Shown piece by piece: positions 13,091-32,592 of a stretch of 64,000 nucleotides of DNA. How positions within the stretch are numbered: the first letter of the stretch is position 1; each line of letters opens with the position of its first letter. A model generated the notes under the pieces. The model saw nothing but the letters and a program-made list of their open reading frames with translations, had not been told where the DNA came from and did not search any database. The stretch covers positions 90,534 to 154,533 of the forward strand of contig JAZQFC010000037.1 in the NCBI GenBank assembly GCA_045539315.1. Direction: 5' to 3'. This stretch comes from Acutalibacteraceae bacterium. GTDB taxonomy: Bacteria; Bacillota; Clostridia; Oscillospirales; Acutalibacteraceae. A program made the translations under genes and the position numbers.

Positions 13091-13101
13091 ATTAATAATA
13101 T

Positions 13102-15764: not shown

Positions 15765-15765
15765 C

Positions 15766-16206: not shown

Positions 16207-17411
16207 TACTTAACTACTACCTTATAATAATCCTTAATATTATCAACAATTTTAAGCATTTCATCTGTCGTTTCGGCTTTAAAAATAATCGTTCCTAATG
16301 AATGTGTAGTATTTTTATATGCATAAACTTTATCGCCTTTTTTATGAGTACAATACACATCAATTAAATTATTCTTTTTAAAGTCTTCATTAAACCAAAG
16401 TTCTTCAAACTCACCATCGACTTCGCTTAAAATCATATAATTACTATAGCAACCATTTGTTTTTGCCATTTCAAGACCTGAACAATCTTCACCTACTGCA
16501 GCGCGAAGAGTGTACTCTATCATATCAACACCGGTTGCATATTTTATAAGTTGTGGAATATAACTGCCACCATTTCTAGGACCTAATTCCAATATGTAAA
16601 CATCATCATTTTCATCAATGATAACTTCTATATTATAAGCACAAGTTTTCATTCCTAGTGCTGTTATAAGTCTTTGAATCTCGCCATCAACCTTTTGCTT
16701 TTGCTCATCGGTTAAAAATGATGGCCAAAATTCACCTAGCGCCACATAATCACGAGTGCCAATAGAACTCTTGTTATATAACTCATTACCATAACTTGTG
16801 AAAACTAGCTTACCATCAACTGAAAAACCATCACCAGAAACCTGATAACCTTTTTTAACAATAAAACCTTCAATGATAAATCTGCCGTTTCTTGAATACG
16901 AAAGCGCTTCTTTAACTGCTTTTTTAAGCTCAGACTTATCAAAAATTTTGACAACGCCTTTACTACCAGATGAGTCAACTGGCTTTACCATAACAGGAAA
17001 ATGAAATTTATCTATTTCTTGCATTGCTTTTTCATAAGAACTATATCCTCTTGCTCTTGGAGTATGAAATCCGTTTTTAGCTAAAAATTCTCTAAACAAA
17101 TCTTTTTGAGTTAAAATTTTAACCGATTCAAACGGATTGCCAGGTAAATTAAGCTCTTGTGCAACATAAGCCGCTGTTGGTGCGGCAGGGTCAGAAGCAT
17201 AAGCAACAATACCATCTATTTCACATTTTTTTGCAAGTTCTAACACACCATCTAAATCGGTGGTGCTTACATTATAATATTCATCTGCGAACTTATGCCC
17301 TGGATTTTCTTCCAAATAATCACAGGTTATTACGTAATAACCCATATCTTTTGCTTGTTTAATAGCAGGGATTTGTTGCATGGTTCCGCCTAAAAATAAT
17401 AACTTTTTCAC
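16206..17411 (-). CDS. ATP-grasp domain carboxylate-amine ligase
   Basis: 401 aa with KKLLFLGGTMQQIPAIKQAKDMG, FPVMVKPVDSSGSKGV and FIIEGFI. Paralogous to 7834-9138. Confidence 0.82.
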   Translation of the reverse strand: MKKLLFLGGTMQQIPAIKQAKDMGYYVITCDYLEENPGHKFADEYYNVSTTDLDGVLELAKKCEIDGIVAYASDPAAPTAAYVAQELNLPGNPFESVKILTQKDLFREFLAKNGFHTPRARGYSSYEKAMQEIDKFHFPVMVKPVDSSGSKGVVKIFDKSELKKAVKEALSYSRNGRFIIEGFIVKKGYQVSGDGFSVDGKLVFTSYGNELYNKSSIGTRDYVALGEFWPSFLTDEQKQKVDGEIQRLITALGMKTCAYNIEVIIDENDDVYILELGPRNGGSYIPQLIKYATGVDMIEYTLRAAVGEDCSGLEMAKTNGCYSNYMILSEVDGEFEELWFNEDFKKNNLIDVYCTHKKGDKVYAYKNTTHSLGTIIFKAETTDEMLKIVDNIKDYYKVVVK

Positions 17412-17423
17412 TAAAACATTTCC

Positions 17424-18593
17424 TTATTTTTTATTCTTAATATCATTAACAAAACGAGATATTTTTTCAACTGCAAGTTGAAGTTTATCTAACTCTAATG
17501 TAAAAGCAATTCTTACAAAGTCATCATAATTATCGCCATAAGTTACTCCGGGAGCAACAGCGATATGTTGTTCTTTTAATAACTTTTCAGTAAACTCTAT
17601 CGATTTTATTCCGGTCTTTTCTATATTAACAAACAAATAGAATGTTCCTTCAGGGGTTTTACAAGAAAGACCATCAATCAAATTAATTGCTTTAGTTATG
17701 TAATCTCTTCGCTCTTGGAAGGTTTTTAACATTGACTTATCATCAATACATTTTTCATACGCCACAGTACCGGCATATTGTGATGGAAGAGGAGTACAAG
17801 CAGCAATGTTTTCCTGAAGTTTTGTCATAGTATCGATAAGTTGTTCAGGTGCCACCGCATAGCCTACTCTATACCCCGTCATTGAAAAGCGTTTAGAAAG
17901 ACTATCAATCAAAACTGTACGCTCTCGCATACCCTCACGAGTAAAAATACTGCTATGATTTTTGTTATCATAAATAAGATAACTATAAACTTCATCAGAA
18001 ATTACAACCAAATCATTTTGAATAGCAATTTCAGAAATTTCATCCAAAATATCATCGCCAAAAGCAGTACCGGTAGGGTTACAAGGTGAATTTAAAATAA
18101 TCGCAACTGTCTTTTTTGTTATAGCATTTTCAATTTGCTCTTTTGTTGGAATAAAACCGTTTTTCTCATTAGAATTTACTACAACAGGAATACCACCTGC
18201 CATTTTTATCATTTGAATATAATTAACATAATAAGGCGCTAAAACTATTACTTCATCGCCTTCATCAATAAGACTGGCAAGTGAAATATATAGCGCTCCC
18301 ATACCACCTACAGAAACCATTATCTCTGTTTCGGGGTCAACGCATATGTTATACTCATTTTTTATATGTTTTGCTAAAACTTTTCTCAACTCTATAATAC
18401 CTGCATTAGCAGAATAGTGAGTGCTGCCACTCATTATTGCATCACAAGCGGCTTGTCTAATTTCAAGATTTGGCACAACATCGGGGTCGCCAAGTGTTAA
18501 GTCTATAACATCATCATAATTTTTTGCAATGTTAAAAAACTGTCTTGTCAAAGATGTTTCAACTTGACTTGCTTTTTTAGAAATTTTCATCAA
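17424..18593 (-). CDS. Class I/II PLP-dependent aminotransferase (aspartate-aminotransferase fold)
   Basis: 389 aa. SLSKRFSMTGYRVGY (PLP lysine) and NSPCNPTG motifs. Confidence 0.87.
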   Translation of the reverse strand: MMKISKKASQVETSLTRQFFNIAKNYDDVIDLTLGDPDVVPNLEIRQAACDAIMSGSTHYSANAGIIELRKVLAKHIKNEYNICVDPETEIMVSVGGMGALYISLASLIDEGDEVIVLAPYYVNYIQMIKMAGGIPVVVNSNEKNGFIPTKEQIENAITKKTVAIILNSPCNPTGTAFGDDILDEISEIAIQNDLVVISDEVYSYLIYDNKNHSSIFTREGMRERTVLIDSLSKRFSMTGYRVGYAVAPEQLIDTMTKLQENIAACTPLPSQYAGTVAYEKCIDDKSMLKTFQERRDYITKAINLIDGLSCKTPEGTFYLFVNIEKTGIKSIEFTEKLLKEQHIAVAPGVTYGDNYDDFVRIAFTLELDKLQLAVEKISRFVNDIKNKK

Positions 18594-18615
18594 TTCGACC
18601 CCCTTTTTTAATAAT

Positions 18616-20073
18616 TTATCTATTTTTGAGTTTAACTAAAAATTTCTTCACCATATCTAAAACATACATAAATGCTTCGAGTTTAAATAACCAAGATACT
18701 CCGATATAAACAATCGCACCTGTTAGCACTTGTAGTGCTAATAATGCTATTGTCGGAAGCGGAATGTATTGCATAAAATACACAACAGCCGCCATAAACA
18801 CAGATACGATAAGGCTCGGAGCAATGTCTTTTAACTGCTCAAAATATGAGTATCCTAGCAACTTTTTGTTTGGGAAAGCATTGATAAAACTACTTGCAAA
18901 AGTACCAATTAACATACCTATTGCAATTGCTTTTACACCATAGAAGAAAGTGATTCCTAAGATTGCGAGTCCAACAACCTTTTTCACAATTTCAAGAATT
19001 AAGAATATATCACTTCTACCTACCGCTTTTATTGCGTTTAAGTTAGCAGTATGAATAGGATAGAATGCATAAGAAACGCAGAAAATTCTAAGATATATTG
19101 AGCAGTCCGCAATATCCCATTTTTCACCCAATAGTAATTCAAGTAGTGGAAATGCTATTGCCGCAAGACCCATCATCATAGGCCAAAGCACACACGAACT
19201 GGTTTTTATCGAACGACGAGTCATAGACTTAATCTTTTTAACATCGTCTTGCTCTTGACTTAACGCCGGGAATAAAACTCCATCAATAGAAGCATTTAAA
19301 TTTGATGCTATAATTTTTGGAATTTTTTGACCTTGGTCATATCGTCCTAAATCCGCACTGTCATATTTTGTGCCGATAAGAATTGTTCTGCACTCATTAT
19401 AAAGTCTATCAATCAAAGATGAACAGAACAATTTCCATCCATAAGAAAATAATCCACCAAGTCTTTTAAAAGAAAATGCCCAAACCGGTTTCCATTTCAC
19501 AGTAAACCACATAATCAAAGTGCTAAGTAAAGTGTTTAAAAGCCTTTGTGCAACTAACGCCCAAATTCCAAAGCCCATATATGCCATAACGACGCCGGCA
19601 ACACCGGAAATTATGATAGCAGGCATCGCCGAATAAAAGAATTTTTTAAACTGTAGTTTCTTAGAAATATAAGATACCTGAATATTTTTTAATCCAGAAA
19701 CAACAAGCGTCAACCCAAGCACTCGAATATATGAGGACAAACCTTCGTATTTACCCTCTAAATGCGGTGCTACAAAAAACAACGCAGCATACAAAACTGC
19801 ACAAACAACTATATTAAAATAAAATACTGTTGAAAAATCTATATCATCAGCATTCTTTTTTTGAATAAGTGCATTGCCCATACCACTATCAATAAACACT
19901 TGAAGTATCTCAGTAAAAGCAAGAATAAGCGCAACTGTACCAAGTGCATCTTCGCCAAGCTTTCTGGCTAAAACAATATTTACTATAAACGAAATACCTT
20001 GTAACCCAAATCTTTCGCCTAAACGCCAGAAAAAGCCTGCAAGCGTTTTTTGTTTTAAATTACTTTCTGCCAT
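18616..20073 (-). CDS. wzx: Wzx-type polysaccharide flippase (MOP superfamily)
   Basis: 485 aa, about 12-14 TM helices. The N-terminus (FWRLGERFGLQGISFIVNIVLARKL) is typical of Polysacc_synt flippases. Confidence 0.82.
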   Translation of the reverse strand: MAESNLKQKTLAGFFWRLGERFGLQGISFIVNIVLARKLGEDALGTVALILAFTEILQVFIDSGMGNALIQKKNADDIDFSTVFYFNIVVCAVLYAALFFVAPHLEGKYEGLSSYIRVLGLTLVVSGLKNIQVSYISKKLQFKKFFYSAMPAIIISGVAGVVMAYMGFGIWALVAQRLLNTLLSTLIMWFTVKWKPVWAFSFKRLGGLFSYGWKLFCSSLIDRLYNECRTILIGTKYDSADLGRYDQGQKIPKIIASNLNASIDGVLFPALSQEQDDVKKIKSMTRRSIKTSSCVLWPMMMGLAAIAFPLLELLLGEKWDIADCSIYLRIFCVSYAFYPIHTANLNAIKAVGRSDIFLILEIVKKVVGLAILGITFFYGVKAIAIGMLIGTFASSFINAFPNKKLLGYSYFEQLKDIAPSLIVSVFMAAVVYFMQYIPLPTIALLALQVLTGAIVYIGVSWLFKLEAFMYVLDMVKKFLVKLKNR

Positions 20074-20082
20074 TTAATAACC

Positions 20083-21300
20083 TCATTTAATCTTTAACTT
20101 TGCTTGCTTTATGAATTTAACGAGTTTCATTCCACCTATTTGATATACACTTGCAGATAACTTTTCTTTTTTTGACAAACAAAAGTTGTCAAATCCGTAA
20201 AACTCATCTGACTTAGATGAATTCTCTATAAACTCAAAATGGTGTTTATACTCTTTTAAATAGTCAGTTGTGCCTTCATCTGTGCGCTCATTTTTACTCA
20301 AAAAGTCGCCATATAAAATCGATTCTAAATATTCATTTATAGTTATATCTACAGGCTCTACCCTTTCAAGTTTAACCAATGTATCGTAGCCGTAAACTCC
20401 GATTGCTTCATTATCATATACATCAACTGAAATTGTTGGCACACATTCTAAATATGGAGGTTTCACACAACCTGCTCCTGCGATGCACACATTCATAAGT
20501 TTAAGCATTTTTCTAGGTATAGGAAACTGCTCACCAACAATAATTATCTCAACATTTGAATAGTTTTTAACATAATTTTTTATCGCTTTTTCAGGCTTTT
20601 TTCTTATACCACCGATACAAAATAAAATAAATTGTTCTGTCTTATGATACTGCGCAAAATCGCAAATTTTTTTCACGCTTTCAAAAACATAAGATTTATA
20701 ACCTCTGCCAATTAAACCTATTACCTTTTTGCCATTACATTTTTCTATATATTCCTCTGGGATTTCAACATCTTCAACAGGATTTCCTAATGCCGGTTTC
20801 AAGTGATAACACTCTTTATTTTCATCAAAAAGTTTTTGCATTCCCTTTTTTGAAATACAAGCAACTTCTTTGCGATTATATTTAAACTTCAAACAATCAA
20901 AAACGCTTTTTGAAAGTCCATCAAAATTTTCACCTAACAAGTAAACAATATGCTTTGCGCCTATTCGTTTTGCTAGTAATTCTCCCCATACTGCAAGGCA
21001 AGGTGTATGGCTTTCAATTATAATTTCATCGTTCTTGTTGTAATCAATTTCTTTGCAAATCCAATTTAATATATTGTCCACTCTTTTTAAAGAAAAGCAA
21101 TAAGGGTTTAAAGATAATTCTTCTAGAATCAAATCTGCATATTTTTTTAAAGGTTCTATTTCAATTTTTCCGTGTTTAGTAGAAAAAACATATGTATCAA
21201 ATCCTTGAGATTTACAATACTCTGACTTGTTTTTACAGTATATTTGACCGCCACCAACGGTATAAATAAAACTCGTTAATAAAATATACTTTTTACTCAT
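20083..21300 (-). CDS. Uncharacterised protein, possible divergent GT-B glycosyltransferase (tandem paralog B)
   Basis: 405 aa, about half identical by eye to the neighbour 21312-22541. Shared blocks: MSKKY, VGGGQIYCKNK, YCKSQGFDTY, IIESHT, AKHIVYLL, FPIP.KML.LM.VC.A.AGCV.PPY. Confidence 0.55.
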   Translation of the reverse strand: MSKKYILLTSFIYTVGGGQIYCKNKSEYCKSQGFDTYVFSTKHGKIEIEPLKKYADLILEELSLNPYCFSLKRVDNILNWICKEIDYNKNDEIIIESHTPCLAVWGELLAKRIGAKHIVYLLGENFDGLSKSVFDCLKFKYNRKEVACISKKGMQKLFDENKECYHLKPALGNPVEDVEIPEEYIEKCNGKKVIGLIGRGYKSYVFESVKKICDFAQYHKTEQFILFCIGGIRKKPEKAIKNYVKNYSNVEIIIVGEQFPIPRKMLKLMNVCIAGAGCVKPPYLECVPTISVDVYDNEAIGVYGYDTLVKLERVEPVDITINEYLESILYGDFLSKNERTDEGTTDYLKEYKHHFEFIENSSKSDEFYGFDNFCLSKKEKLSASVYQIGGMKLVKFIKQAKLKIK

Positions 21301-21311
21301 TGCTTCCCTTT

Positions 21312-22541
21312 CTAATGTTTTCTTCTTAATTTTCTAATCCATCTAATTAGTTTTACACCGCCGATTTTACTAAGAAGTGACCATATTTTTTCTTTTTTTG
21401 TTAGAACAACATTGTTAAATTCATAATATTCCTTTTGTTTTGAAGAATCTTCAATAAACTTAAAATGAACATCATAGGCCTTATCAAAATCAATCGGCTC
21501 TGGCGCTGTAAATTCATTTTCTTTTATAAAATTACCATAAATAATTTCTTCAAGATAATAATTTTTCGGTTTGTTTAATTCTTTTTTTCTCGATAAAGTT
21601 GCAAATGTATCATAACCCATTACACCGATTGGTTTATTATCATAAACATCCATCGTAATAGTAGGAATACCTTCGTAATAAGGTGGTCTTACACAACCTG
21701 CTGCCGCAAAACAAACATCCATAAGATGGAGCATTTTTTTAGGAATTGGGAATTGGTTATCTGTAAATACCAACTCCACATTTACACAGTTTTTAGCACA
21801 TTTTTGTTGTTTTTGATAAAAACCATCTACAATACTTCCTATAACAAGCAAAACAAACTTGTCTTCTTTATGTTTATTGGCGAAGTCACAAGCATCTTTA
21901 ACAGCTTGGTAAACATAATTTTTACCACCTCTACCAATAATACCGATTACCTTTTTATTTTTGCATTTTTCTATGTATTCATCTGGGATTTCAATATCCT
22001 CAACAGGTACACCAAGTGTCGCTTTTAAAAAGAAGCACTCTTCTTCTAAAAGTTTTTTATAAGGAGCAAACATTTTTTGCATTGCAATTTTATCTATACA
22101 AGCAAGTTCTTTTCGACTATATTTGAAATCTAAAAATTTAAAAACATAGTCTGAAAGTTCATCAAAACTTTCAGTTAACAAATAAACAATATGCTTTGCT
22201 TTTATTCTTTTTGCTACCATTTCACCCCAAAGCGCAAGTTCTTCCGTGTGACTCTCAATTATAACTTCATCATCTTCACAATAATTTATTCCTTTTAAAA
22301 TCTTTTCTATTGTTTTTTCTGTTGTTCTTTCATTAAAAATCGTTGGGAAAAAATCTAATGCTTTAATAATTAACGACGAAAATTTTTCTAAATCTTTTAT
22401 AATTATTTTTCCGTTATAAGGTGAAAAAATATATGTATCAAAACCTTGAGATTTACAATATTTAATTTTGTTTTTGCAATAAATCTGGCCACCGCCAACA
22501 TTGGTTATTCCGCATGTTAAAATGACATATTTTTTGCTCAT
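21312..22541 (-). CDS. Uncharacterised protein, possible divergent GT-B glycosyltransferase (tandem paralog A)
   Basis: 409 aa, tandem duplicate of 20083-21300 separated by 11 nt. No E-x7-E motif recognised. Confidence 0.55.
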   Translation of the reverse strand: MSKKYVILTCGITNVGGGQIYCKNKIKYCKSQGFDTYIFSPYNGKIIIKDLEKFSSLIIKALDFFPTIFNERTTEKTIEKILKGINYCEDDEVIIESHTEELALWGEMVAKRIKAKHIVYLLTESFDELSDYVFKFLDFKYSRKELACIDKIAMQKMFAPYKKLLEEECFFLKATLGVPVEDIEIPDEYIEKCKNKKVIGIIGRGGKNYVYQAVKDACDFANKHKEDKFVLLVIGSIVDGFYQKQQKCAKNCVNVELVFTDNQFPIPKKMLHLMDVCFAAAGCVRPPYYEGIPTITMDVYDNKPIGVMGYDTFATLSRKKELNKPKNYYLEEIIYGNFIKENEFTAPEPIDFDKAYDVHFKFIEDSSKQKEYYEFNNVVLTKKEKIWSLLSKIGGVKLIRWIRKLRRKH

Positions 22542-22566
22542 TTTTACCCCTTCGTTTTTATTGCTT

Positions 22567-23469
22567 TTATTTACTTAAATCAAGCATTTCACCAAGTTTT
22601 AAGTTCCATTCATCCGGCTCAAATTCTTTAAAGCCACAAGCAGGATAGAATGTGATTTCACCAAAATAAAGTTTACCTTCAACCTCATAAAAATCGATTC
22701 TTGAAAACTTTTTGCCTTCTGATAAAACTTTCGCAATTTCAATCATTTTTTCAAAATTCTTTGGTTTTTCAGGTGTTATTTTCGCGTTTTTACAACCTTT
22801 TCTTTTTAATTCTAAATGGTTCCAGTTAAGGTCAAAAAAATCGATGCAAAGGTCGCCTTTTTCTCTATCAGTACAAGTATGAAGCATTTTAACTTCGCCA
22901 TTAAAGCAGAAAAATTTATAATCAATTAATTCAGTACCTAAAAACTTTTCTGCAATAATAAGTGGTTTTACATTTTTATATGGCCATTCTCTTCCATGAT
23001 AGAAAAAATTAATTTTCAAATTTTTATTTAAAAACTTTTTAGTTTTAATTCTATCTAGTTTTGACTTGTCATCACAAACTATAAAGCCGCCACTATTATG
23101 ATTACACTTTAACACAAACTTTTCTGGCAAACTATCAAAATCAATATCATCAAAGTTTTCCCAAACACCGAGTGTTGGAATTGTGTATTCTTCACCAACT
23201 TTTTCTGATACGAAATCTTTTACTTTTAATTTATCAACAAGTTCTGTGTACAAAGGGTTTCTATCATAAAGTTTTAGCCATTGTAATTTTGCTTCAAAAG
23301 TTTTTGGATTGTCAAGGTCTAATTCTCTTTTAAAAGCATACTTATATCTTTTTTTCAAGTATTTTTCATCATCAATTCTTTTGACAAACCAAAAACGGCT
23401 TAGAACTGTTAATCTATATTCAGAATCAAATATTAATCTTAAATACTTATTCATTTTATATACAACCAC
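22567..23469 (-). CDS. TupA-like ATP-grasp amidoligase family protein (copy 2)
   Basis: 300 aa. Blocks NPKTFEAKLQWLKLYDRNP, IPTLGVWENFDDIDFDSLPEKFVLKCNHNSGG, REWPYKNVKPLIIAEKF and YKFFCFNG match the teichuronopeptide TupA-type family. Start is GTG at 23469 or ATG at 23454. Confidence 0.8.
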   Translation of the reverse strand: MVVYKMNKYLRLIFDSEYRLTVLSRFWFVKRIDDEKYLKKRYKYAFKRELDLDNPKTFEAKLQWLKLYDRNPLYTELVDKLKVKDFVSEKVGEEYTIPTLGVWENFDDIDFDSLPEKFVLKCNHNSGGFIVCDDKSKLDRIKTKKFLNKNLKINFFYHGREWPYKNVKPLIIAEKFLGTELIDYKFFCFNGEVKMLHTCTDREKGDLCIDFFDLNWNHLELKRKGCKNAKITPEKPKNFEKMIEIAKVLSEGKKFSRIDFYEVEGKLYFGEITFYPACGFKEFEPDEWNLKLGEMLDLSK

Positions 23470-23488
23470 ATCATATTAATATTTCAAA

Positions 23489-24904
23489 CTAATCAATATC
23501 TGGTATAATACCAAATTGTTCTTTGTATTTTAACTTACAGAAAAGTGCAAATATAATTCCAAGCAATGTCCAACTGCCGACTATTGCAAATTCTACCGGT
23601 GCAAGCGCAGTTGCTGATTTAGGAATCAGATACATAACTACCAATAAACCTGATAATGCAACTGCCAAAGCCCCAACTAATTTATAATGTTTTATTTTAT
23701 AAGGCCTTTCGAGTTCTGGTTCTTTCTTACGCAATATCAAAAACGATATTGATACTATGCAGTATGCTACACAACACGCAAAACTCGCCGCGTTTGAAAT
23801 CCAAACAAGCATTTGTCTGCCAAAGAACACCGAAACAATAGATAGTATTCCGATAAGAATAATAGCAGTTGTTGGGGTTTTTCTTTTTTGATTAAGTTTT
23901 GAAAAAAATGCAGGAATCATTTTTGCCTCACCCATAGCATAAATAACACGACTACCACCGATTAAAAATGAGTTCCAACTTGTAATGATGCCACACATAC
24001 CTCCAATTATGAGTACCTTTGACATAATACTGCTATTAAACGCCTTTGACATTGCATCAGCAGTTACAAGACTAGCGCCTTGGGTAGAATTAGCAATATC
24101 GTTCGAGTTAAGAACCAATCCCACAGCGAGCACAACCAAAGCATAAAAAGCAACTGCTAAAACTATTGATAACAACAACAATTTTCCTACTTTTTTAAGT
24201 GGTATATTAATTTCTTCCGCAACCTGTGGAATCACATCAAATCCGAGTAAGAAAAAAGGTGTTACAACTGCGATTGCAAGAATATTTTTAAATGAATCAA
24301 ATCCAGTGCTACCTACAAACGCTTGTCCTTCAAGGTTTTTAATATCACCAGTGAAAAGCGATGCCACAACAAGTAAAATCCCAACAATAGCAATTACAAC
24401 AGTTAAAACCGTTTGAACAATTGCAGCAATTTTTACTCCTCGCATATTTATCCAAGTAATAATTACAGCAAAAATTATTGCAGTTACAAGCCAAGTAGCA
24501 TAAATATCAAATCCTGCGACAGAATATAAATAACCTTGTAAAAACGGTGGATAAATATATTGAATAATTGTAGGCAAAGCACATGCTTCAAAGCAAACAA
24601 CTCCTACATAACTCAATACCAATGCCCACGAGCAAATAAATGAACCTGCAGGTCCTAATGCTCTAAAACTAAAAACATGTTCACCACCGCACTGTGGTAA
24701 TGCAGTTGTAAGTTCCGCATAAGTAAGACCAACAAAAAATATCATAAGACCGCCAATTAAAAACGAAATAACTGTTCCCAAAACACCCGCAGTTTGAATC
24801 CAGTTGCCTGATGATACTACCCAGCCCCAACCAATCATAGCACCAAATGCCGTTACAATAATATCGCCAGAACCAAGTACCTTTGAAAATTTCGATTTAG
24901 CCAT
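23489..24904 (-). CDS. APC-superfamily amino-acid (or amine) permease
   Basis: 471 aa, 12 predicted TM helices. N-terminal GAMIGWGW block and an AELTTALPQCGGEHVF motif typical of APC permeases. The ATG directly abuts the TAA of the upstream gene, and an AAAGGAG RBS sits inside that gene. Confidence 0.85.
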   Translation of the reverse strand: MAKSKFSKVLGSGDIIVTAFGAMIGWGWVVSSGNWIQTAGVLGTVISFLIGGLMIFFVGLTYAELTTALPQCGGEHVFSFRALGPAGSFICSWALVLSYVGVVCFEACALPTIIQYIYPPFLQGYLYSVAGFDIYATWLVTAIIFAVIITWINMRGVKIAAIVQTVLTVVIAIVGILLVVASLFTGDIKNLEGQAFVGSTGFDSFKNILAIAVVTPFFLLGFDVIPQVAEEINIPLKKVGKLLLLSIVLAVAFYALVVLAVGLVLNSNDIANSTQGASLVTADAMSKAFNSSIMSKVLIIGGMCGIITSWNSFLIGGSRVIYAMGEAKMIPAFFSKLNQKRKTPTTAIILIGILSIVSVFFGRQMLVWISNAASFACCVAYCIVSISFLILRKKEPELERPYKIKHYKLVGALAVALSGLLVVMYLIPKSATALAPVEFAIVGSWTLLGIIFALFCKLKYKEQFGIIPDID

Positions 24905-25825
24905 TTATTTTTCTCCTTTATTATTTGGTAATTGAAGCCAACTGCCAAATCTATAATCCCATTCTTCAGGTTCATAAGGTTCAAAGCCGGAATTATGAAA
25001 GAATGTCATCTCACCAAAATAAATCTTACCATCTACCAAATATGTATCAAATCTCACATGTGGTATATCTTTTGCAAATTTTTCTGCAATTTCAATTAAT
25101 TTATCAAGTTCTTTTGGTTTTCTTAATTCAGTTTTAGAATGTGGAAATAATACTTTTACATCAATTCTGTTGAAATCTACATCCAAGAAATCATTAGTTC
25201 TTTGATTCTCTCCAAGTCCATGTGCATCGCCTTTACACACTAAAATGCACTTAACCTTACCATTGAAACAGAAAAACTTATACTCTGCACACTCAGGACC
25301 ATTTAACTTTACAAATTTTTCAGCTATAATTCGAGGTTTAACATTTTTGTAAGGCCATTCTCTACCGTGCTTGTAATAATTAATTCTAAGAGTCTTGTTA
25401 ATTTTCTTTCTAGCTTTTTTCAAATCCAATTTAGATTTATCCTTGCATATAATTAAACCACCACTATCGTGAGTGCACTTTAACACAAACTGATTTGGCA
25501 AAGCATCAAAATCTATATCATCAAAATTATCCCATACCCCAAGTGTTGGAATTATATATTCTTCACCGATTAAATCAGACACATACTTTTTAGCTTCATA
25601 TTTATCAACCATGGTTGTATAAATATCTTTTCTATTATAAAGTTTTAACCATTGAAGTTTCTCATTAAATGTTTTAGGGTTATCAAGATTTAATTTGTTA
25701 CCTATTCTAAGTTTATAGAATAGTTTTAAATATATTTTATCTGGTAAAAAATTAAACAATCCCTTAGATTCTAAATAAAATAAAACTAATTTAGGATTCT
25801 TTATTATCTTCAAAAATCGTTTCAC
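24905..25825 (-). CDS. TupA-like ATP-grasp amidoligase family protein (copy 1)
   Basis: 306 aa with NPKTFNEKLQWLKLYNRKD, IPTLGVWDNFDDIDFDALPNQFVLKCTHDSGG, REWPYKNVKPRIIAEKF and YKFFCFNG. Overlaps the wzy stop by 35 nt. Confidence 0.8.
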   Translation of the reverse strand: MKRFLKIIKNPKLVLFYLESKGLFNFLPDKIYLKLFYKLRIGNKLNLDNPKTFNEKLQWLKLYNRKDIYTTMVDKYEAKKYVSDLIGEEYIIPTLGVWDNFDDIDFDALPNQFVLKCTHDSGGLIICKDKSKLDLKKARKKINKTLRINYYKHGREWPYKNVKPRIIAEKFVKLNGPECAEYKFFCFNGKVKCILVCKGDAHGLGENQRTNDFLDVDFNRIDVKVLFPHSKTELRKPKELDKLIEIAEKFAKDIPHVRFDTYLVDGKIYFGEMTFFHNSGFEPYEPEEWDYRFGSWLQLPNNKGEK

Positions 25826-27107
25826 TTTTTATCTCCTTATTATCTTTGTTAAGCTTATAATACATAAAGGCGGAAATGAAAAATGGATAATACATTTCCA
25901 TACAATAATACATACTATATGATGTTGTTGCAAAAGTAAAAATCATAAAAACTACCAAAACCAAACCTAGTTGTTGCTTGTTTTTTAAATAGCATTTTAA
26001 CAACCCAAAGGCAAACGAAATTAATGGCACATAATATATTGCAGTTCCAACAAGCCCTAAAGTTGATAACAGTTCTAATAAGTTATTATGAGAATAAGCA
26101 ATATGTGAACTTCCTATTTCTCTCATATACTGCGCGAAATTATTACACCCGTAACCAAGAATAGGATGCTGTTTGAAAAGTTCTATCGCTTTTTCAGCAA
26201 AAAAAGCTCTTTCATTCATACTAGAATCTGCTTCTGTCCCTAAAAAAGTATTAAGCATAGATTCAAATCGAAATCCGATTACATTATAAAAAAATTCTAC
26301 ATTCATCATAACATACCACAATACTATCAATGGTATCGCTATAACTAATATCAAAACAATTTTTTTAGTTAAATCTTCTTTTAAATTTTGTCTAGTGACT
26401 TTTCTGCGTTGCTTATATAAAATAATATAAGCAGACACACATAATAGTATCATACCGATTGATTTTCTAGACCCTGTAAGCAAAACAAGTATAGACAAAC
26501 CAATAGCTGAAATCATATAAAACCATTTTAGATTTTTAACAGTAGTGAAAAAATATACACTAATCAACACACCTACTGCAAGACGGAACCCTATATCATT
26601 AGCATGTAAACCTGTCGCATTACCAATACGCTCAGTTCCAAATTCCTCTGCAGGTGTTACAATTAAAATATACACACCAAGGTAAAGGAAGGACAAGTGT
26701 ATTAATTTAAACAACTTGTTTATATCTTCATTAGACTTTAATTGTTGTGAAAGACCTAATGCAACTGCAAATATCTGAATAAATGTATTTGAGTATAACA
26801 TTACATCGCTTTGATTTCGAGCCCACATATACGACAAATAACAATAACCAAAAAAAGCAAACAACCAAAGTATATAGTAATTTATTGTTAATCGTTCTTT
26901 ATTAATTAGAAAGCTTAGTGCCACAGATCCTACATACAACACAAATGTTATTCGAATGAAAAGTGCATCAAATCCCTCTCCTGACTGATGCGCAGAAGTT
27001 GCACACAAATATAAAAACAAACAAAAATTCATTAACTTTTCTATACTAAGCAACATGTTTTCATTTGTTTTCGCAATGTCACTTTTTGAAACAATAATTT
27101 TTCCCAC
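25791..27107 (-). CDS. wzy: O-antigen polymerase/ligase-like (Wzy family) membrane protein
   Basis: 438 aa and polytopic. The extracytoplasmic loop HPILGYGCNNFAQYM...YSHNNLLELLSTLGLVG is typical of the Wzy_C domain. GTG start with a GGAGG RBS. Confidence 0.78.
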   Translation of the reverse strand: MGKIIVSKSDIAKTNENMLLSIEKLMNFCLFLYLCATSAHQSGEGFDALFIRITFVLYVGSVALSFLINKERLTINYYILWLFAFFGYCYLSYMWARNQSDVMLYSNTFIQIFAVALGLSQQLKSNEDINKLFKLIHLSFLYLGVYILIVTPAEEFGTERIGNATGLHANDIGFRLAVGVLISVYFFTTVKNLKWFYMISAIGLSILVLLTGSRKSIGMILLCVSAYIILYKQRRKVTRQNLKEDLTKKIVLILVIAIPLIVLWYVMMNVEFFYNVIGFRFESMLNTFLGTEADSSMNERAFFAEKAIELFKQHPILGYGCNNFAQYMREIGSSHIAYSHNNLLELLSTLGLVGTAIYYVPLISFAFGLLKCYLKNKQQLGLVLVVFMIFTFATTSYSMYYCMEMYYPFFISAFMYYKLNKDNKEIKSETIFEDNKES

Positions 27108-27108
27108 A

Positions 27109-28179
27109 TTAACCTCCGATATTTTCTAGTAATCGACTTGCGATTACTTCTGCCGAATAGTTCTCTTTTACAAATTCCCTTCCACTATTAGCTATTTTTT
27201 CTTTATCTAATTGAAATAACATTTTTTCAATTGCCCCGGACATAGCATCTGAATCATTTACAGGTACTAACAAGCCATTCTCTCCGTCAATAATCAAATC
27301 TGACGGACCTGTTGGACAGTCAGTTGAAACGCAAGGCACGCCTGCTGCCATTGCTTCCATCAAAGAGTTTGGCATTCCTTCATAATCCGATGACAAAACA
27401 TACAAATCAATCGATTCAAACATAGATTTCATATCATTTGTTCTGCCCATCAAATTTACACATTCATCTAAGCCTTTATCAGTTATATATTTTTCTAACT
27501 GTTCTTTTAACTCTCCATCGCCAAAAATCTCAAGCACTATCTTTTTATGATTTTGAAAAACTTTCTCGAATGCATCAATAAGCATAAAAAAGTTCTTTTG
27601 AGAATTAAGTCTTCCTGCCGACGCAATTACCAATTTTTCATTATCTTTTTGACTTTTACAGTCGAACAAATCGCCTCTTACCGGATTTGGTAAAACAAAA
27701 ATTTTCTTTTGAGTTTTCTCGTCAAAATAACTCTTTTGATTCTCATTTTGAACAAAAGTTTTAAATGAAAATTTTATAAATAAGTCACGCAAAAATCTAT
27801 GTAATTTGCCTTCAGGTAAAGTTCTTGGGTCATTTCTTACAGTTTGAATTATTTTATGTTTTGTACCAAATAATGCAACACAAGTCTGAATACAAACATG
27901 CGATAAAAATGGAACAACAAAATCAGGTTTTTCAACTTTTGCGACTTTACGAATTTTTGAAAGTCTTTCAAAATAATTCATACTATCATAAGCCTCTTCA
28001 AAACCGTCAGAAAGATATATTTTTTTAACACTCTCTGACATTTCATATTCATTTTCTGTTTTAAAATAAACAAGCACGCTTGCTTCGTGTCCCATTTCTA
28101 CCAAAGCGCTTGCAAGAACAGATACAACTCTTTCTGCTCCACCTTTTGATAAAGATGGAATTACAAATAAAAACTTCAT
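27109..28179 (-). CDS. Glycosyltransferase family 4 (GT-B)
   Basis: 356 aa with GGAERV at the N-terminus and E-x7-E region EGMPNSLMEAMAAGVPCVSTD. Confidence 0.88.
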   Translation of the reverse strand: MKFLFVIPSLSKGGAERVVSVLASALVEMGHEASVLVYFKTENEYEMSESVKKIYLSDGFEEAYDSMNYFERLSKIRKVAKVEKPDFVVPFLSHVCIQTCVALFGTKHKIIQTVRNDPRTLPEGKLHRFLRDLFIKFSFKTFVQNENQKSYFDEKTQKKIFVLPNPVRGDLFDCKSQKDNEKLVIASAGRLNSQKNFFMLIDAFEKVFQNHKKIVLEIFGDGELKEQLEKYITDKGLDECVNLMGRTNDMKSMFESIDLYVLSSDYEGMPNSLMEAMAAGVPCVSTDCPTGPSDLIIDGENGLLVPVNDSDAMSGAIEKMLFQLDKEKIANSGREFVKENYSAEVIASRLLENIGG

Positions 28180-28182
28180 TAA

Positions 28183-29256
28183 CTAACCTTCTGTTACTAT
28201 ATCATAAATGTCTGCATATTGTTTTAAAACAACACAGTCAAGATATGTGTCCTTAACTCTTTGCACATTAAAATCAGACATTTTCTGTCTCAAACTTTTA
28301 TCGGTCAACTCATTCAAAGCCGATTTTAATTCATTTGGACTTTGTTGAGAAATAACTTTACCGCCTTCCCCGTAATCAATCATATCAGCATTTGCAGCCC
28401 AATCAGTAACTATACAAGGAAGACCTGCCGCCATTGCTTCTGTAAGTGCGCAAGAAAAACCTTCGCCGAAGTATCTTGATAAAAACACAAAAACATCATT
28501 GCTATCAAGTTGCTCTTTTACATAATCTGCATTTTGAACCCCATGAAGTCTAACGTTTTCAGAAATCTCAAGATTTTTTATTTCATCAGAAATTGCACCA
28601 ACTAAATTAAACTGAATTTCAGGCATCTCTCTAGCAGCAGCGATAATAGTATCACACCCTTTTTCAGGTGTTACACCACCAACAAACACAACTTTGTTGA
28701 TTTGTTCATTTATTTCTTTCTTTTTATCGAAATTAAGTTCAGATTCCATAACGAAGTTTGGTATAATCTGAACTTTTGCTTTTTTATTCAAACTTTTAAC
28801 AAAATCATAAGACTTTTGATTAAGAACAATTATTCCATCGCAAAGGCGAGAAAACCATTTAAACACAAGTCTTTTGTAACCTTTATTAACTACATTCGGC
28901 ATAGTACAGTGACAGTGAAGAATAAACTTCTTGTTATATTTTTTAGCGATTCTTCCTGTTACATATTCTCTTAACATACCAAACACAGTACAAGGAATAT
29001 TAGTATGTACAACAGAGATTTCAGGCTCATTTTTTAAAGCAGCTTTCTCTTGTTTCCAAATAGACATAGAGCGAACATACTCGTCTTTGATATGTCTTTT
29101 TGTATTTTCAAAAGGGTCTCTGCCATTAATTGTGTTTGAATTAATATGCACTATACCCCAGCCACTTGGCAAACCTATTGTCAAAACTCTTTTAGTCCAA
29201 GTTGCAATGCCGCCTGCTGGTGGTGGATAATGCGATATAAGCAAAACTTTTTTCAT
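28183..29256 (-). CDS. Glycosyltransferase family 4 (GT-B)
   Basis: 357 aa with PPAGGIATW at the N-terminus and EGFSCALTEAMAAGLPCIVTD. Confidence 0.88.
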   Translation of the reverse strand: MKKVLLISHYPPPAGGIATWTKRVLTIGLPSGWGIVHINSNTINGRDPFENTKRHIKDEYVRSMSIWKQEKAALKNEPEISVVHTNIPCTVFGMLREYVTGRIAKKYNKKFILHCHCTMPNVVNKGYKRLVFKWFSRLCDGIIVLNQKSYDFVKSLNKKAKVQIIPNFVMESELNFDKKKEINEQINKVVFVGGVTPEKGCDTIIAAAREMPEIQFNLVGAISDEIKNLEISENVRLHGVQNADYVKEQLDSNDVFVFLSRYFGEGFSCALTEAMAAGLPCIVTDWAANADMIDYGEGGKVISQQSPNELKSALNELTDKSLRQKMSDFNVQRVKDTYLDCVVLKQYADIYDIVTEG

Positions 29257-29264
29257 AAACTCTC

Positions 29265-29819
29265 CTAAAATTTAAAAGTTTCAGAAAAACTTCCCCATTT
29301 TTGGTCTTTTTCTGAAATAATAAGTTCTACACCTTCTTCAAGCGGCCATTCTATGCCGATTTCAGCGTCATTCCACATAACGCCACCTTCATCGCCTGGG
29401 CGATAAAAGTCAGTGCATTTATAGCAAAATTCTGCAGTATCAGAAAGCACCAAAAATCCATGCGCAAACCCTGGAGAAATATAAAACTGTTTCATATTTT
29501 CTGCCGACAAAATCTCTCCGTGCCATTTGCCATAAGTTTGGGAATCTTTTCTCAAATCAACTGCAACATCAAAAACTTTACCTTTGATTACTCGTACTAA
29601 TTTTCCCTGTGGATACTCTTTTTGATAATGAAGTCCACGAAGCACGCCTCTTTTTGACATTGACTGGTTATCTTGAACAAAAACCATATTAAGACCTGCA
29701 TCGTTCATATCTTTTTGGTTATATGTTTCAACAAAATAGCCCCTGTTATCGCCATAAACTGTTGGCTCAATAGTATAAAGCCCTTTTATTGAACATTCTT
29801 TAACAGTAATTTTACCCAT
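29265..29819 (-). CDS. rfbC: dTDP-4-dehydrorhamnose 3,5-epimerase
   Basis: 184 aa with GDNRGYFVETY and VLRGLHYQ cupin motifs. TAATG overlap with the upstream SDR gene. Confidence 0.92.
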   Translation of the reverse strand: MGKITVKECSIKGLYTIEPTVYGDNRGYFVETYNQKDMNDAGLNMVFVQDNQSMSKRGVLRGLHYQKEYPQGKLVRVIKGKVFDVAVDLRKDSQTYGKWHGEILSAENMKQFYISPGFAHGFLVLSDTAEFCYKCTDFYRPGDEGGVMWNDAEIGIEWPLEEGVELIISEKDQKWGSFSETFKF

Positions 29820-30652
29820 TATTTACCCTTCGCTTTTAGTATTTTTTCTATTTTTTCGCTATTTCCCCAAACTGCATCTGAATCATACGCTCTGTCAGGA
29901 AAAGCGCCATAAATGAGTTTTATATCATAGTCATTTTCTTTGATAAACTGCTCTACTCTGTCTGCAAGACTTACAGGTTTGCCAGAGCAAATGTTTATAA
30001 TACCGTTCACATCATTTTGCATAACTGCCGCTGACACTTGAGATGCAAATTCTTCATAATTAAGAAAATCGTATTTATTTTTACCGGTTGTAAACGGAAA
30101 TTCTTTTTTACCTTCTTCTACTGCAGAAGTGATTTTTGAAAATATTGAGTTACCAAACTTTGAATTACCAACGATATAGTAACCACGAAGCCATTGAAAA
30201 ACAACATTATTAGTTTTGCACAAAAGTTCTGCTGCAACTCTTAATGCGTTTTTTGCAACGCCGTATAAATTAAGCGGTTTGCAAGGTGTATTCTCATCAA
30301 TGCACCCCTCATAAAAGCCAATTTCATGCATTGAACCTAAAACTGCAACTTGACGTACTCCGCCTTTTATTATATTTTCAATAAACTCATAATGCTTTGG
30401 CAAATCGTTAAGATGGTTAGGCGAATTATGCACAAAACCATCGCGCCAAGCCAAATGCAATAAAACATCAGGACTTTCAAAATACTCAAAAGGATTTTCG
30501 ACATTGAACAAATCAACTGACATCTTTTTTGCTCTTTCATCAACAAAGTCCAAATTAAAATCAACTGCTAAAACTTCGGCACCGTCATCAATTAACTGTT
30601 TTACAATGCCTTGTCCTAAATACCCGTTTGCACCGGTAACAAGAATTTTCAT
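29819..30652 (-). CDS. SDR-family NAD(P)-dependent reductase/epimerase occupying the rfbD position
   Basis: 277 aa from the internal ATG (MKILVTGANGYLG) 7 nt after the rfbB stop. YGVAK (YxxxK). It does not look like canonical RmlD, so it may be a dTDP-4-keto-6-deoxyhexose reductase of different stereochemistry. Confidence 0.65.
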   Translation of the reverse strand: MKILVTGANGYLGQGIVKQLIDDGAEVLAVDFNLDFVDERAKKMSVDLFNVENPFEYFESPDVLLHLAWRDGFVHNSPNHLNDLPKHYEFIENIIKGGVRQVAVLGSMHEIGFYEGCIDENTPCKPLNLYGVAKNALRVAAELLCKTNNVVFQWLRGYYIVGNSKFGNSIFSKITSAVEEGKKEFPFTTGKNKYDFLNYEEFASQVSAAVMQNDVNGIINICSGKPVSLADRVEQFIKENDYDIKLIYGAFPDRAYDSDAVWGNSEKIEKILKAKGK

Positions 30653-30659
30653 ACTTAAA

Positions 30660-31679
30660 TTATCTATCCTTATACATTTTTTCGTAGTAATCTTGGTAGT
30701 CACCTTTAAGAATGTTTTGCCACCATTCTTTGTTATCAAGATACCACTGAATAGTTTTCTTTATACCATCATCAAATTTAGTTTCCGGCAACCAACCCAA
30801 ATCATTATGAATCTTTGTTGGGTCAATTGCATATCTCAAATCATGACCAGGTCTGTCAGTAACATAAGTTATCAAACTTTCCGGTTTATTAAGAGCCTTC
30901 AAAATTGTTTTAACAACTTCTAAATTGCTCTTTTCATTATGACCGCCGATATTATAAATCTCGCCAACCTTACCTTTTCTAATAATAAGGTCGATAGCGC
31001 TACAATGGTCTTCAACATAAAGCCAGTCACGAACATTTTCGCCTTTGCCATAAACCGGCAAACTCTCATCATCAAGCGCACGAGAAATCATAAGCGGAAT
31101 TAACTTTTCAGGGAAGTGATATGGGCCATAGTTATTAGAACAACGAGAAATTGTTACAGGAAGACCATAAGTTCTCTGATAAGCGCCCACCAACAAATCT
31201 GCCGCCGCTTTTGAAGATGAATAAGGCGAAGAAGTATGAATTGGTGTTTCTTCTGTGAAGAACAAATCAGGTCTGTCAAGCGGCAAATCGCCGTAAACTT
31301 CGTCAGTTGAAACCTGATGATAACGTTTAACGCCGTATTTTCTCGAAGCATCCATAAGCACAGATGTGCCTATGATATTTGTTTTCAGGAAAATTTCAGG
31401 GTCTTCAACGCTTCTGTCAACATGGCTTTCAGCGGCGAAGTTAACAACTATATCAAATTTTTCTTCTTGGAACAATTTATAAACCGCTTCTCTATCAGCG
31501 ATATCGCCTTTTACAAAACGGAAATTATCATTTTTCATAGCCTCTTCAAGAGTTTGAAGATTTCCTGCATATGTAAGCGCATCAAGACAAACAATTCTGT
31601 CTTCAGGATGATTTTTAAGTTGGAAGTAAACAAAGTTACTTCCAATAAATCCGGCACCGCCGGTTACTAAAATATTCAT
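30660..31679 (-). CDS. rfbB: dTDP-glucose 4,6-dehydratase
   Basis: 339 aa from the ATG at 31679 (MNILVTGGAGFIGSNF) with a GAGGG RBS. YSSSKAAAD catalytic motif. Confidence 0.93.
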   Translation of the reverse strand: MNILVTGGAGFIGSNFVYFQLKNHPEDRIVCLDALTYAGNLQTLEEAMKNDNFRFVKGDIADREAVYKLFQEEKFDIVVNFAAESHVDRSVEDPEIFLKTNIIGTSVLMDASRKYGVKRYHQVSTDEVYGDLPLDRPDLFFTEETPIHTSSPYSSSKAAADLLVGAYQRTYGLPVTISRCSNNYGPYHFPEKLIPLMISRALDDESLPVYGKGENVRDWLYVEDHCSAIDLIIRKGKVGEIYNIGGHNEKSNLEVVKTILKALNKPESLITYVTDRPGHDLRYAIDPTKIHNDLGWLPETKFDDGIKKTIQWYLDNKEWWQNILKGDYQDYYEKMYKDR

Positions 31680-31694
31680 AAAATACCCTCTCAA

Positions 31695-32576
31695 TTAATA
31701 AAAAAGTTTTCCTTCGGCAACGTTTTTAAGGTGTTGTCCATAAGGACTTTTACCGTAAGCTTTAGCCGATTCAAGCAAATTATCTTTATCTATCCAACCA
31801 TTGTTGTAAGCGATTTCTTCTAAAGATGAAATTACAACGCCACATTGTTGAATTGTTTTAACAAAGTCGCCCGCTTCTACTAAACTATCAACAGTGCCAG
31901 TATCAAGCCATGCAAAACCGCGACCTAAAACTTCTAATTTAAGCGAATTGTCATCAAGATACATTTTGTTCAAATCTGTAATTTCCAACTCGCCACGGTC
32001 TGATGGTTTAACTTTTTTTGCAAAATCTACAACTCTATTGTCATAGAAATAAAGACCGGTTACAGCATAATTTGATTTTGGCTCTTTAGGTTTTTCTTCT
32101 AAAGATAAAACATTCAACTCTTTATCAAACTCTGCAATGCCAAAACGCTCTGGGTCATTAACATAATAGCCAAACAAAGTACACAAACCTTTTTCGCTAT
32201 TTTCTACTGCGTTTTTAAGTAATCTTGTAAAACCATGACCATAGAAAATATTATCGCCTAAACACAAAGCGCAACTATCATCACCAATAAACTCTTCACC
32301 AATGATAAACGCTTGAGCAAGTCCATCAGGAGAGGGTTGAATAGCATATGAAAGTTTTATGCCGTACTGACTACCATCGCCCAAAAGATTTTTAAAATTT
32401 TGACTATCTTCAGGAGTTGTAATAATTAAAATATCACGAATTCCTGCTAACATAAGAGTAGAAATAGGGTAAAAAACCATTGGCTTATCATAAACTGGTA
32501 ACAACTGTTTAGAAGTTACTTTTGTAAGTGGATAAAGTCGAGTACCAGAACCGCCTGCAAGTACAATACCTTTCAT
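31695..32576 (-). CDS. rfbA: Glucose-1-phosphate thymidylyltransferase
   Basis: 293 aa with [18 protein letters not shown] and the typical RmlA C-terminus. Confidence 0.94.
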
Positions 32577-32592
32577 TTTTTAATTCCTCTCT

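Follow-up and report, generated by a model that had tools for sequence, protein, structure and literature searches.

A TupA-like amidoligase coupled to an APC permease as a putative ligase-importer cassette in a glycan operon of an Acutalibacteraceae bacterium

TupA of Bacillus halodurans C-125 is the founder of the protein family PF14305 and has been tied to teichuronopeptide, a polyglucuronate-containing wall polymer with amino acid material (PMC8153356). This polymer carries poly-gamma-L-glutamate, no importer has been described for it and the molecular role of TupA was never defined. It has been described for Campylobacter jejuni HS:2 that the C-terminal TupA-like domain of Cj1438 carries out the ATP-dependent amidation of the C6 carboxylate of glucuronic acid (GlcA) on the growing capsule chain with ethanolamine phosphate or serinol phosphate (PMC11800379). 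In Gram-negative bacteria, TupA-like enzymes encoded in O-antigen and capsule loci, such as WemR of Proteus mirabilis, are proposed to add amino acids (PMC13419641). In the type 1 capsule of Staphylococcus aureus taurine is amide-linked to N-acetylgalactosaminuronic acid (PMC12043029). Already known, then, are TupA-like ligases in glycan loci, one of which amidates GlcA, and importers dedicated to glycan decoration (LicB, for choline). In the licABCD system, choline is taken up by LicB and phosphocholine is then placed on lipooligosaccharide or teichoic acid by LicD. The DNA analysed here is a stretch of 64,000 nucleotides (the window) from an uncultured gut or rumen Clostridia bacterium (Acutalibacteraceae bacterium, assembly GCA_045539315.1, contig JAZQFC010000037.1, positions 90,534 to 154,533), in which two ligases of the same PF14305 family, TupA1 and TupA2, flank a permease of the APC superfamily inside a glycan operon (Table 1). 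TupA1 and the permease are proposed to be a two-gene ligase-importer cassette that was slotted into an existing Wzx/Wzy glycan operon and that would amidate the glycan with a scavenged amine, a reading to which a probability of roughly 60% is given.

The first-pass annotation of this DNA, made from the letters alone, had described two TupA-type genes on the minus strand sharing four motif blocks and flanking a permease with 12 transmembrane (TM) segments. Coordinates, strand and motif blocks were reproduced, all four blocks being present in both TupA1 and TupA2, which are 49% identical over 301 residues (E = 3e-98). A hidden Markov model check showed the flanking genes to be TupA-like and the middle gene to be an APC permease, with scores (Table 1) above the gathering cut-offs of PF14305 (25 bits), PF13520 (27 bits) and PF00324 (24.6 bits); the 241 positions of the PF14305 profile are covered from 1 to 238 by TupA1 and from 1 to 240 by TupA2. 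A crude hydropathy scan found 12 hydrophobic segments in the permease, in line with the topology claimed for it, the highest-scoring PDB entries for this protein being 6f2g and 5oqt (about 88 bits). The permease was also considered as the Wzx flippase of the operon; this was ruled out, as the real Wzx is encoded at 18616-20073 and the permease matches AA_permease models. At the junction between the TupA1 and permease genes the sequence reads ...AAAGGAGAAAAATAA followed directly by ATG, such that the TAA of TupA1 (24905-24907) abuts the permease ATG (24902-24904). A Shine-Dalgarno sequence (AAAGGAG) lies 8 nt upstream of this ATG, inside TupA1, as the first-pass annotation had read. The same abutted junction with its embedded ribosome-binding site was identified in a Logan contig (L090), whose TupA is 98% identical to TupA1.

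TupA1 is predicted to have an ATP-grasp fold on the basis of an AlphaFold2 model (predicted local distance difference test score 90.9, predicted template modelling score 0.87), for which the best Foldseek matches were D-Ala-D-Ala ligases, biotin carboxylase, LysX/ArgX and PsnB (probability 1.0, TM-scores 0.36-0.48). A PDB search returned no solved structure among its close relatives. Residues K116, E169, R258, D260 and E272 are invariant across 35-40 TupA1 homologues and are present in TupA1 and TupA2. By analogy with other ATP-grasp enzymes, the Lys of FVLKC, the Glu of IIAEKF and the Asp/Glu of RxDxY...GExTF are putative nucleotide and Mg2+ ligands, and ATP-dependent amide formation on a glycan carboxylate is proposed for TupA1 from the example of the C-terminal domain of Cj1438.

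The association of TupA1 with a transporter recurs, and it follows the C-terminal half of the ligase. When the 120 best TupA1 homologues are compared with TupA1 half by half, N-half identity is unimodal, around 67%, and C-half identity is bimodal (14 homologues reach at least 55%, all others at most 47.6%). C-modules of the TupA1 type form a discrete subgroup, to which residues H202, R209, T210, N211 and D212 are specific. Every member with high C-half identity and readable context, from five distinct loci, has a transporter directly downstream. This is an APC permease in L090, in L001 (with TupA-APC in L001/L002) and in L087, and a sodium:solute symporter of the SSF family in L088/L089 and in L173, the last having been predicted ahead of its look-up. 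The synteny search proposed in the first-pass annotation recovered the TupA-APC pair in an Acutalibacteraceae metagenome-assembled genome and the full TupA-APC-TupA trio in GCA_965342825.1 (L087) at 54-62% identity, the permease being at 54%. Together with those of L116 and L127, the SSF partners form one orthologous group (mutually 60-86% identical); in the curated subfamily models the SSF partner scored under every cut-off. For other TupAs, about 93 genes in 80 metagenome loci with a median C-half identity of 41%, none has an APC neighbour and two have an SSF neighbour; these two rank among the highest for C-half identity. A neighbour-joining tree of the C-module contains one clade with seven importer-linked ligases, seven of unread context and none lacking an importer. 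The recurrent pairing is thereby demonstrated, and the presence of two non-homologous importer families (APC and SSF) in the same slot speaks for solute uptake as the selected function. A homologue search with the C-half of TupA1 alone returned short gene fragments only and gave no size for the subfamily. Of the 120 best homologues, 110 (P0125, P0126, P0143, P0160 and the majority of P0123-P0240) are 414-476 aa in length, versus about 300 aa. In four of four long homologues checked, and in the alignment consensus, the C-module (about 130 residues) occurs twice in tandem, the second copy being 38-46% identical to the first; here, too, this module behaves as a unit.

A sister species (GCA_045649405.1, L171 and L172; nucleotide identity about 77%) has the same locus, with a collinearity that extends from MazG past ugd to a LysR gene. 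Its order is Wzy-TupA-TupA-unk409-unk405-Wzx onward, the two TupA genes being separated by a 35-nt spacer, and no permease was found at any point between MazG and ugd. The permease is accordingly an accessory element that has been exchanged, and not an ancestral member of the operon. In the first-pass annotation it had been called an "integral, translationally coupled" member; the coupling stands (abutting TAA and ATG, embedded ribosome-binding site), and the integral membership is overstated in view of this collinear locus. The sister locus retains LicD, DegT, GNAT and the 401-aa ATP-grasp, so that neither the LicD, the DegT nor the 401-aa ATP-grasp step needs the permease.

Comparison with the sister species also revealed a mosaic within TupA1. 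The N-half of TupA1 is 74% identical to its positional orthologue in the sister (L171a), 71% to the permease-linked TupA of L001 and 58-63% to the two TupAs of L087, while for the C-half (residues about 172-306) the corresponding values are 40%, 86% and 60%. In 30-residue windows, identity to L171a lies at 60-90% and falls to 33% or less from residue 171 on. The permeases of the window and of L001 are 83% identical. The C-half of TupA2 is 60% identical to that of L171b, the second TupA of the sister, and 44-49% identical to others; TupA2, orthologous to L171b in this half, is the ancestral neighbour. The simplest history is that the TupA C-module with the permease (about 25312-23489 of the window), or the whole of TupA1 with the permease, was acquired from an L001-like source, and the C-module of TupA1 was probably exchanged jointly with the permease. 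The permease is associated with the upstream TupA1 only, specifically with its C-terminal module. The functional tie between permease and ligases that had been put forward is supported for TupA1 by comparative genomics (recurrence, C-module), and the sandwich of three genes is not the functional unit.

Relatives of the permease number in the thousands. Neighbouring genes were classified for 86 loci, consisting of 80 loci of species-representative genomes at 61-69% identity and 6 contig look-ups. The majority setting (about 70 of the 86 loci) is a catabolic operon encoding a helix-turn-helix-cupin (or PucR) regulator, an ArgD-family class III aminotransferase (TIGR00707, 430 bits, over the cut-off), a Cytidylate_kin2-like protein, the permease and an iron-type alcohol dehydrogenase (Fe-ADH). 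Hosts include Lachnospiraceae, Megasphaera, Selenomonas, Bifidobacterium and Treponema, with examples in L004, L014, L020 (7082-12637; Anaerostipes hadrus), L039, L061 and L070 and about 65 others; L075 is from Blautia wexlerae. The permease and the Fe-ADH frequently form one in-frame fused open reading frame (ORF) of 860-980 aa; such a transporter-dehydrogenase fusion is unusual and hints at amine-in, alcohol-out metabolism. This is apparently a widespread, uncharacterised amine-utilisation operon of gut anaerobes over several phyla, and the succession of transaminase and alcohol dehydrogenase implies that its substrate is a primary amine. In a neighbour-joining tree the 74 catabolic permeases form one clade, with all 19 glycan-associated ones outside it. 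Across both groups 113 positions are at least 95% conserved, including those of TM1 (AFGAMIGWGW), TM6 (GFDVIPQ) and TM8 (TSWNSF), and just 10 positions, mostly with conservative changes, separate the two, so that the cargo is probably the same or close in both settings. In the glycan clade, an ATP-grasp gene lies at position -1 or -2 upstream of the permease in all 14 loci with readable context, 13 of which are inside glycan loci.

These results bear on whether the permease is an ordinary nutrient transporter that arrived by chance in a recombination-prone variable locus, with no role in the glycan. Such an arrival would suit its absence from the sister locus, the catabolic setting of most of its relatives, which is unrelated to glycans, and the few and mostly conservative differences between the two permease groups. 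It would leave unexplained why an ATP-grasp gene is adjacent in 14 of 14 glycan-clade loci, why the permease co-varies with the TupA C-module, why a second unrelated importer family occupies the same slot and why start and stop codons abut with a ribosome-binding site inside the ligase gene; the glycan-locus permeases moreover form their own lineage, outside the catabolic clade. This explanation is considered improbable.

The ATP-grasp gene that precedes the permease is of several kinds. It is a TupA in L001/L002, L087, L090 and the window, it is represented by ATPgrasp_ST genes in L084, and it is CPSase-like and as a rule precedes an opine-dehydrogenase-type gene in L003, L026, L036, L041, L064, L067, L074, L076 and L081. 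The opine-dehydrogenase slot is filled by either of two unrelated families, Octopine_DH (best PDB match CENDH, 1bg6, 193 bits) or OCD/mu-crystallin (best PDB match 4m54, deposited as "putative ornithine cyclodeaminase", which we take to be SbnB). The three-gene module of CPSase-like ATP-grasp, opine-dehydrogenase-type protein and APC permease recurs in L003, L026, L036, L041 (7563-11404), L067, L076 and L081, mostly within glycan loci beside DegT, the copy in L036 being away from any visible glycan locus. It suggests opine-like (N-carboxyalkyl amino acid) substituents.

Loci of this kind favour a different use of the imported compound, namely that an amino acid is joined via its own carboxylate to an amino sugar made by DegT (N-acylation), by TupA1 acting in reverse or by the 401-aa ATP-grasp, with the permease not serving uronic acid amidation. 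A permease of the same clade stands behind a CPSase-like ATP-grasp and an opine-dehydrogenase-type gene (matching 1bg6 or 4m54 as above) in about nine loci, and in most of these it precedes DegT. The Wzx, the 401-aa ATP-grasp and the DegT protein of the window have close homologues in such loci (for the 401-aa ATP-grasp at 291-407 bits in L026, L067 and L003), the 401-aa protein carries a LAL_C2 domain and Ugd is not in the fetched flanks of L001, L087 and L088. On the other side, the sole characterised TupA-like enzyme activates the carboxylate of the sugar (PMC11800379). L001, L087 and L173 hold the TupA-importer pair with no 401-type ATP-grasp or DegT within reach, the sister locus retains the 401-aa ATP-grasp, GNAT and DegT without a permease, and the permease of the window is translationally coupled to TupA1 and not to the 401-aa ATP-grasp 6 kb off. 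N-acylation is accordingly seen as unlikely, albeit the foremost of the alternatives to uronic acid amidation by TupA1.

With regard to the cargo, the catabolic setting suggests a primary amine amenable to transamination to an aldehyde, and the opine-dehydrogenase setting suggests an amino compound able to undergo reductive condensation with a keto acid. The best guesses are lysine, ornithine, a diamine, gamma-aminobutyric acid, beta-alanine, taurine or ethanolamine, i.e. a basic or omega-amino compound. To our knowledge, bacteria generally do not make taurine, so that scavenging would be needed. A link of the catabolic operon to the published TauF taurine-nitrogen cluster (PMC6616044) was not supported, and taurine is neither supported nor excluded. 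The SarD model gave 253 bits on the catabolic operon versus a cut-off of 700. The Fe-ADH is only distantly related to PDB entry 6jko, which we take to be BkTauF: that of the Treponema member scored 160 bits and that of the Bifidobacterium member fell under the listing threshold, with other alcohol dehydrogenases scoring higher. A riboswitch or T-box was also sought as a clue to the cargo; no Rfam match was found beside seven catabolic operons, and a single T-box belongs to an unrelated gene. By its model scores, the permease belongs to neither of two curated subfamilies, the ethanolamine permeases of TIGR00908 (149 bits versus a cut-off of 382) or the ABT-type amino acid transporters of TIGR00909.

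The first-pass annotation had offered as an alternative that the permease imports an amino alcohol (ethanolamine or choline), which would then be activated and transferred as a phospho-substituent by LicD. There is a licD gene in the operon and in L001/L002, TIGR00908 is the second-best NCBIfam match of the permease, and licABCD is a known paradigm of scavenging and decoration. The TIGR00908 score is far under its cut-off, however, and of the lic-type set (importer, LicA, LicC and LicD) only an importer and LicD are present among the scanned operon genes, with neither a kinase nor a LicC-type cytidylyltransferase. LicD is present and the permease absent in the sister locus, and LicD homologues occur in just 2 of the 86 surveyed permease loci (L001/L002), none being called in L087. 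The amino-alcohol route has consequently been set aside as very improbable.

A similarly slight chance is given to the transporter being an exporter or exchanger (of a by-product, or of precursor for product) and not a net importer. Many APC members, such as AdiC, GadC and PotE, are precursor/product antiporters, and the frequent fusion of the catabolic-clade permease to an Fe-ADH making an end-product alcohol would suit exchange of amine for alcohol. The SSF symporters that occupy the same slot are Na+-coupled importers, and ATP-grasp amide ligation yields no obvious small by-product for export.

In the favoured reading, that of a ligase-importer cassette, the direction of transport, the carboxylate used and the cargo are inferred. 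The permease would import a small amine or amino acid, with a primary amino group, of which the cell makes too little. TupA1 would spend ATP to turn a carboxylate on the lipid-linked repeat unit into an acyl-phosphate, this carboxylate most likely being the C6 of GlcA or galacturonic acid (GalA) supplied by Ugd and the epimerase. The imported amine would attack the acyl-phosphate to form an amide, and the amidated unit would then be flipped by Wzx and polymerised by Wzy. The C-module of TupA1, which co-varies with the importer, presumably recognises the amine. In Ddl, VanA and similar ATP-grasp ligases the C-terminal domain holds the determinants for the incoming nucleophile, which would fit this co-variation. 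TupA2 would be an older, independent ligase that adds something else or works on another residue. Exchange of the cassette would alter the surface chemistry, like a serotype switch. The interpretation given in the first-pass annotation is partly supported in this light: the link between ligase and permease is retained, integral membership, the sandwich as a unit and the LicD alternative are not, and the cargo and a uronic acid as its carboxylate partner are proposals.

Compared with C. jejuni HS:2 (Cj1438 with Cj1435, Cj1436 and Cj1437), a TupA-like ligase is likewise found in a capsule or glycan locus that also encodes a supply of UDP-GlcA, here through a UDP-GlcA dehydrogenase. The ligase of C. 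jejuni is a domain fused to a GT2, whereas TupA1 is a stand-alone protein of 306 aa. In C. jejuni, ethanolamine phosphate and serinol phosphate are made in the cell by dedicated pyridoxal phosphate (PLP) enzymes and are later dephosphorylated by a HAD phosphatase (Cj1435), whereas in the window no such genes were found among those scanned and the ligase is coupled to an importer. The operon has no gene of the HAD family, and the PLP enzymes there are the DegT sugar aminotransferase and a class I/II aminotransferase (orthology with Cj1436 and Cj1437 was not directly compared). For WemR-type enzymes no paired transporter is mentioned in PMC13419641 and the substrates are proteinogenic amino acids present inside the cell, unlike the importer-paired ligase of the window. 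The type 1 capsule of S. aureus is a chemical parallel only, a uronic acid amidated with an amine. The proposed cassette resembles licABCD in that the genes for joining an exogenous small molecule to a surface glycan come with one for a dedicated importer, making surface chemistry dependent on the environment. The lic importer is of the DMT family, in contrast to APC or SSF here, and the lic route uses a kinase, a cytidylyltransferase and a phosphotransferase to form a phosphodiester link, whereas a one-step ATP-grasp ligation with an amide link is predicted here. In the literature searched, no description of a ligase-importer module in glycan loci was found, which is not proof of absence.

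Several points weigh against the proposed cassette. Net uptake is assumed, while many APC members are antiporters, and the permease is below the cut-off in every NCBIfam subfamily model (best TIGR00909, 176 versus 557 bits). The sister species manages without the permease, which means that the operon as such can dispense with the importer. Related loci pair the permease with other ATP-grasp ligases, opine-dehydrogenase-like genes and DegT, so that the permease family could feed amino-sugar N-acylation and not uronic acid amidation. Ugd was not visible within 8-10 kb in L001, L087 and L088, so that a uronic acid acceptor is not general in the flanks fetched. The TupA1-type contexts are few (the five distinct loci) and not fully independent. 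The C-module clade has a bootstrap of 31/40 for its core and a weak 13/40 when two borderline SSF cases are included. A tree of the full-length alignment places the 450-aa SSF-linked TupA of L088 outside the core clade, and for this reason monophyly of all importer-linked ligases is not claimed.

The operon that carries the cassette runs uninterrupted on one strand. Its 5' part encodes, in order, Bac_transf, NTP_transf_5, a WaaS/CpsH-type glycosyltransferase, RmlA, RmlB, an RmlD-like protein, RmlC, two GT4 glycosyltransferases and Wzy. These are followed by TupA1, the APC permease, TupA2, unknown paralogues of 409 and 405 aa and Wzx. After Wzx come a class I/II aminotransferase, the 401-aa L-amino-acid-ligase-like ATP-grasp, GNAT, LicD, the DegT sugar aminotransferase and a hexapeptide acetyltransferase, and the 3' end consists of the epimerase, VanZ and Ugd. 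Matches to Bac_transf (214 bits), Polysacc_synt_3 (297 bits) and Wzy_C (83 bits) mark it as a Wzx/Wzy-dependent locus. The supply of UDP-GlcA and UDP-GalA by ugd and the epimerase, as claimed previously, is consistent with these data and made plausible by the epimerase matches 5u4q and 6zl6 (Table 1); the two genes are presumed to be the source of uronic acid carboxylates. The 401-aa ATP-grasp is a possible second consumer of the imported compound. A terminator scan found nothing convincing inside the operon, and an Rfam scan gave no match anywhere in the window.

Table 1. Position of the ligase-permease-ligase trio and of selected features of the glycan operon in the window.
Feature	Coordinates	Strand	Remarks
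TupA1, TupA-like ATP-grasp amidoligase	24905..25825	-	306 aa; GTG start behind AAGGAG; PF14305 219 bits
APC-superfamily permease, glycan-locus clade of a widespread family	23489..24904	-	471 aa; PF13520 150 bits, PF00324 147 bits
TupA2, second TupA-like ligase	22567..23469	-	300 aa; likelier ATG start at 23454; PF14305 214 bits
C-terminal module of TupA1, importer-linked type	24908..25312	-	residues about 172-306
AAAGGAG ribosome-binding site of the permease, within the last codons of TupA1	24913..24919	-	sequence reading
Wzx/Wzy-type glycan operon, Bac_transf priming transferase to ugd	10238..35489	-	about 25 kb; Pfam and NCBIfam scans
ugd	10238-11467	-	all three UDPG_MGDP_dh domains
VanZ-family membrane protein gene	11464-12033	-	between epimerase and ugd
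UDP-GlcA 4-epimerase-like gene	11954-12997	-	best PDB 5u4q, 386 bits; Bacillus cereus UDP-GlcA 4-epimerase 6zl6, 150 bits
L-amino-acid-ligase-like ATP-grasp	16206..17411	-	401 aa; CPSase_L_D2, ATP-grasp_4, LAL_C2
LicD	14856-15764	-	in operon
Hairpin, likely operon terminator	10203..10234	.	14-bp stem; directly after ugd; terminator scan

A number of further features were observed in and around the operon. From its called TTG start, the VanZ gene overlaps the epimerase gene by about 80 nt. The sister locus has an Acyl_transf_3 gene in the place of VanZ, and the hexapeptide acetyltransferase is absent there. The RmlD-like ORF (29819-30739, minus strand), also with a TTG start as called, overlaps the 3' end of rmlB (30660-31694, minus strand) by 80 nt; its real start is probably further downstream, the gene of the sister species encoding 277 aa, and its NCBIfam RmlD-type matches are very weak. 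The tandem paralogues of 405 and 409 aa (20083-22541, minus strand) lie directly after TupA2, share about 65% nucleotide identity and are kept in the sister locus. Neither has a Pfam or NCBIfam match, and the 409-aa protein (21312-22541) also has no PDB match. Genes of the GH5 cellulase family and of the beta-lactamase fold (35654-38100, minus strand), which are kept in the sister species, are located between housekeeping genes (MazG, HU, S4-domain) and the priming transferase. A second ligase-transporter pair lies beyond the divergent LysR gene (9306-10196), at 6440-9138 on the minus strand: an L-amino-acid-ligase-like ATP-grasp (434 aa; PylC-like_N, LAL_C2) followed by a DctM-type TRAP large subunit (453 aa). 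The sister species has this pair at the corresponding position (L172:12339-15016).

In bacterial surface polysaccharides, uronic acids commonly carry amide-linked amines or amino acids; the enzymes responsible have rarely been assigned, and where the amine comes from is hardly ever known. No description was found of a discrete TupA subfamily consistently paired with an APC or SSF importer, of its movement as a cassette or of module-level exchange between sister species, the last of which is suggested by the mosaic demonstrated here for TupA1. A broader proposal, put forward tentatively and more doubtful than the cassette itself, is that a discrete TupA-like subfamily with a swappable C-module, obligately paired with a dedicated APC or SSF importer, marks glycans of gut and rumen Firmicutes that are amidated with a host- or diet-derived compound which the bacterium cannot make (e.g. 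taurine, a polyamine or a non-proteinogenic amino acid). In that case the chemical environment would govern capsule chemistry, and horizontal exchange of the cassette, or even of no more than the C-module and the importer, would bring about a switch of surface antigen. The importer-paired type of ligase may serve as a sequence marker for glycans carrying scavenged compounds and as an experimental handle, in that supply or removal of the cargo should alter the glycan; the catabolic operon probably acts on the compound that serves for decoration, or on one close to it. A ligase specificity module that is exchanged together with its supply gene would be an example of antigenic switching.

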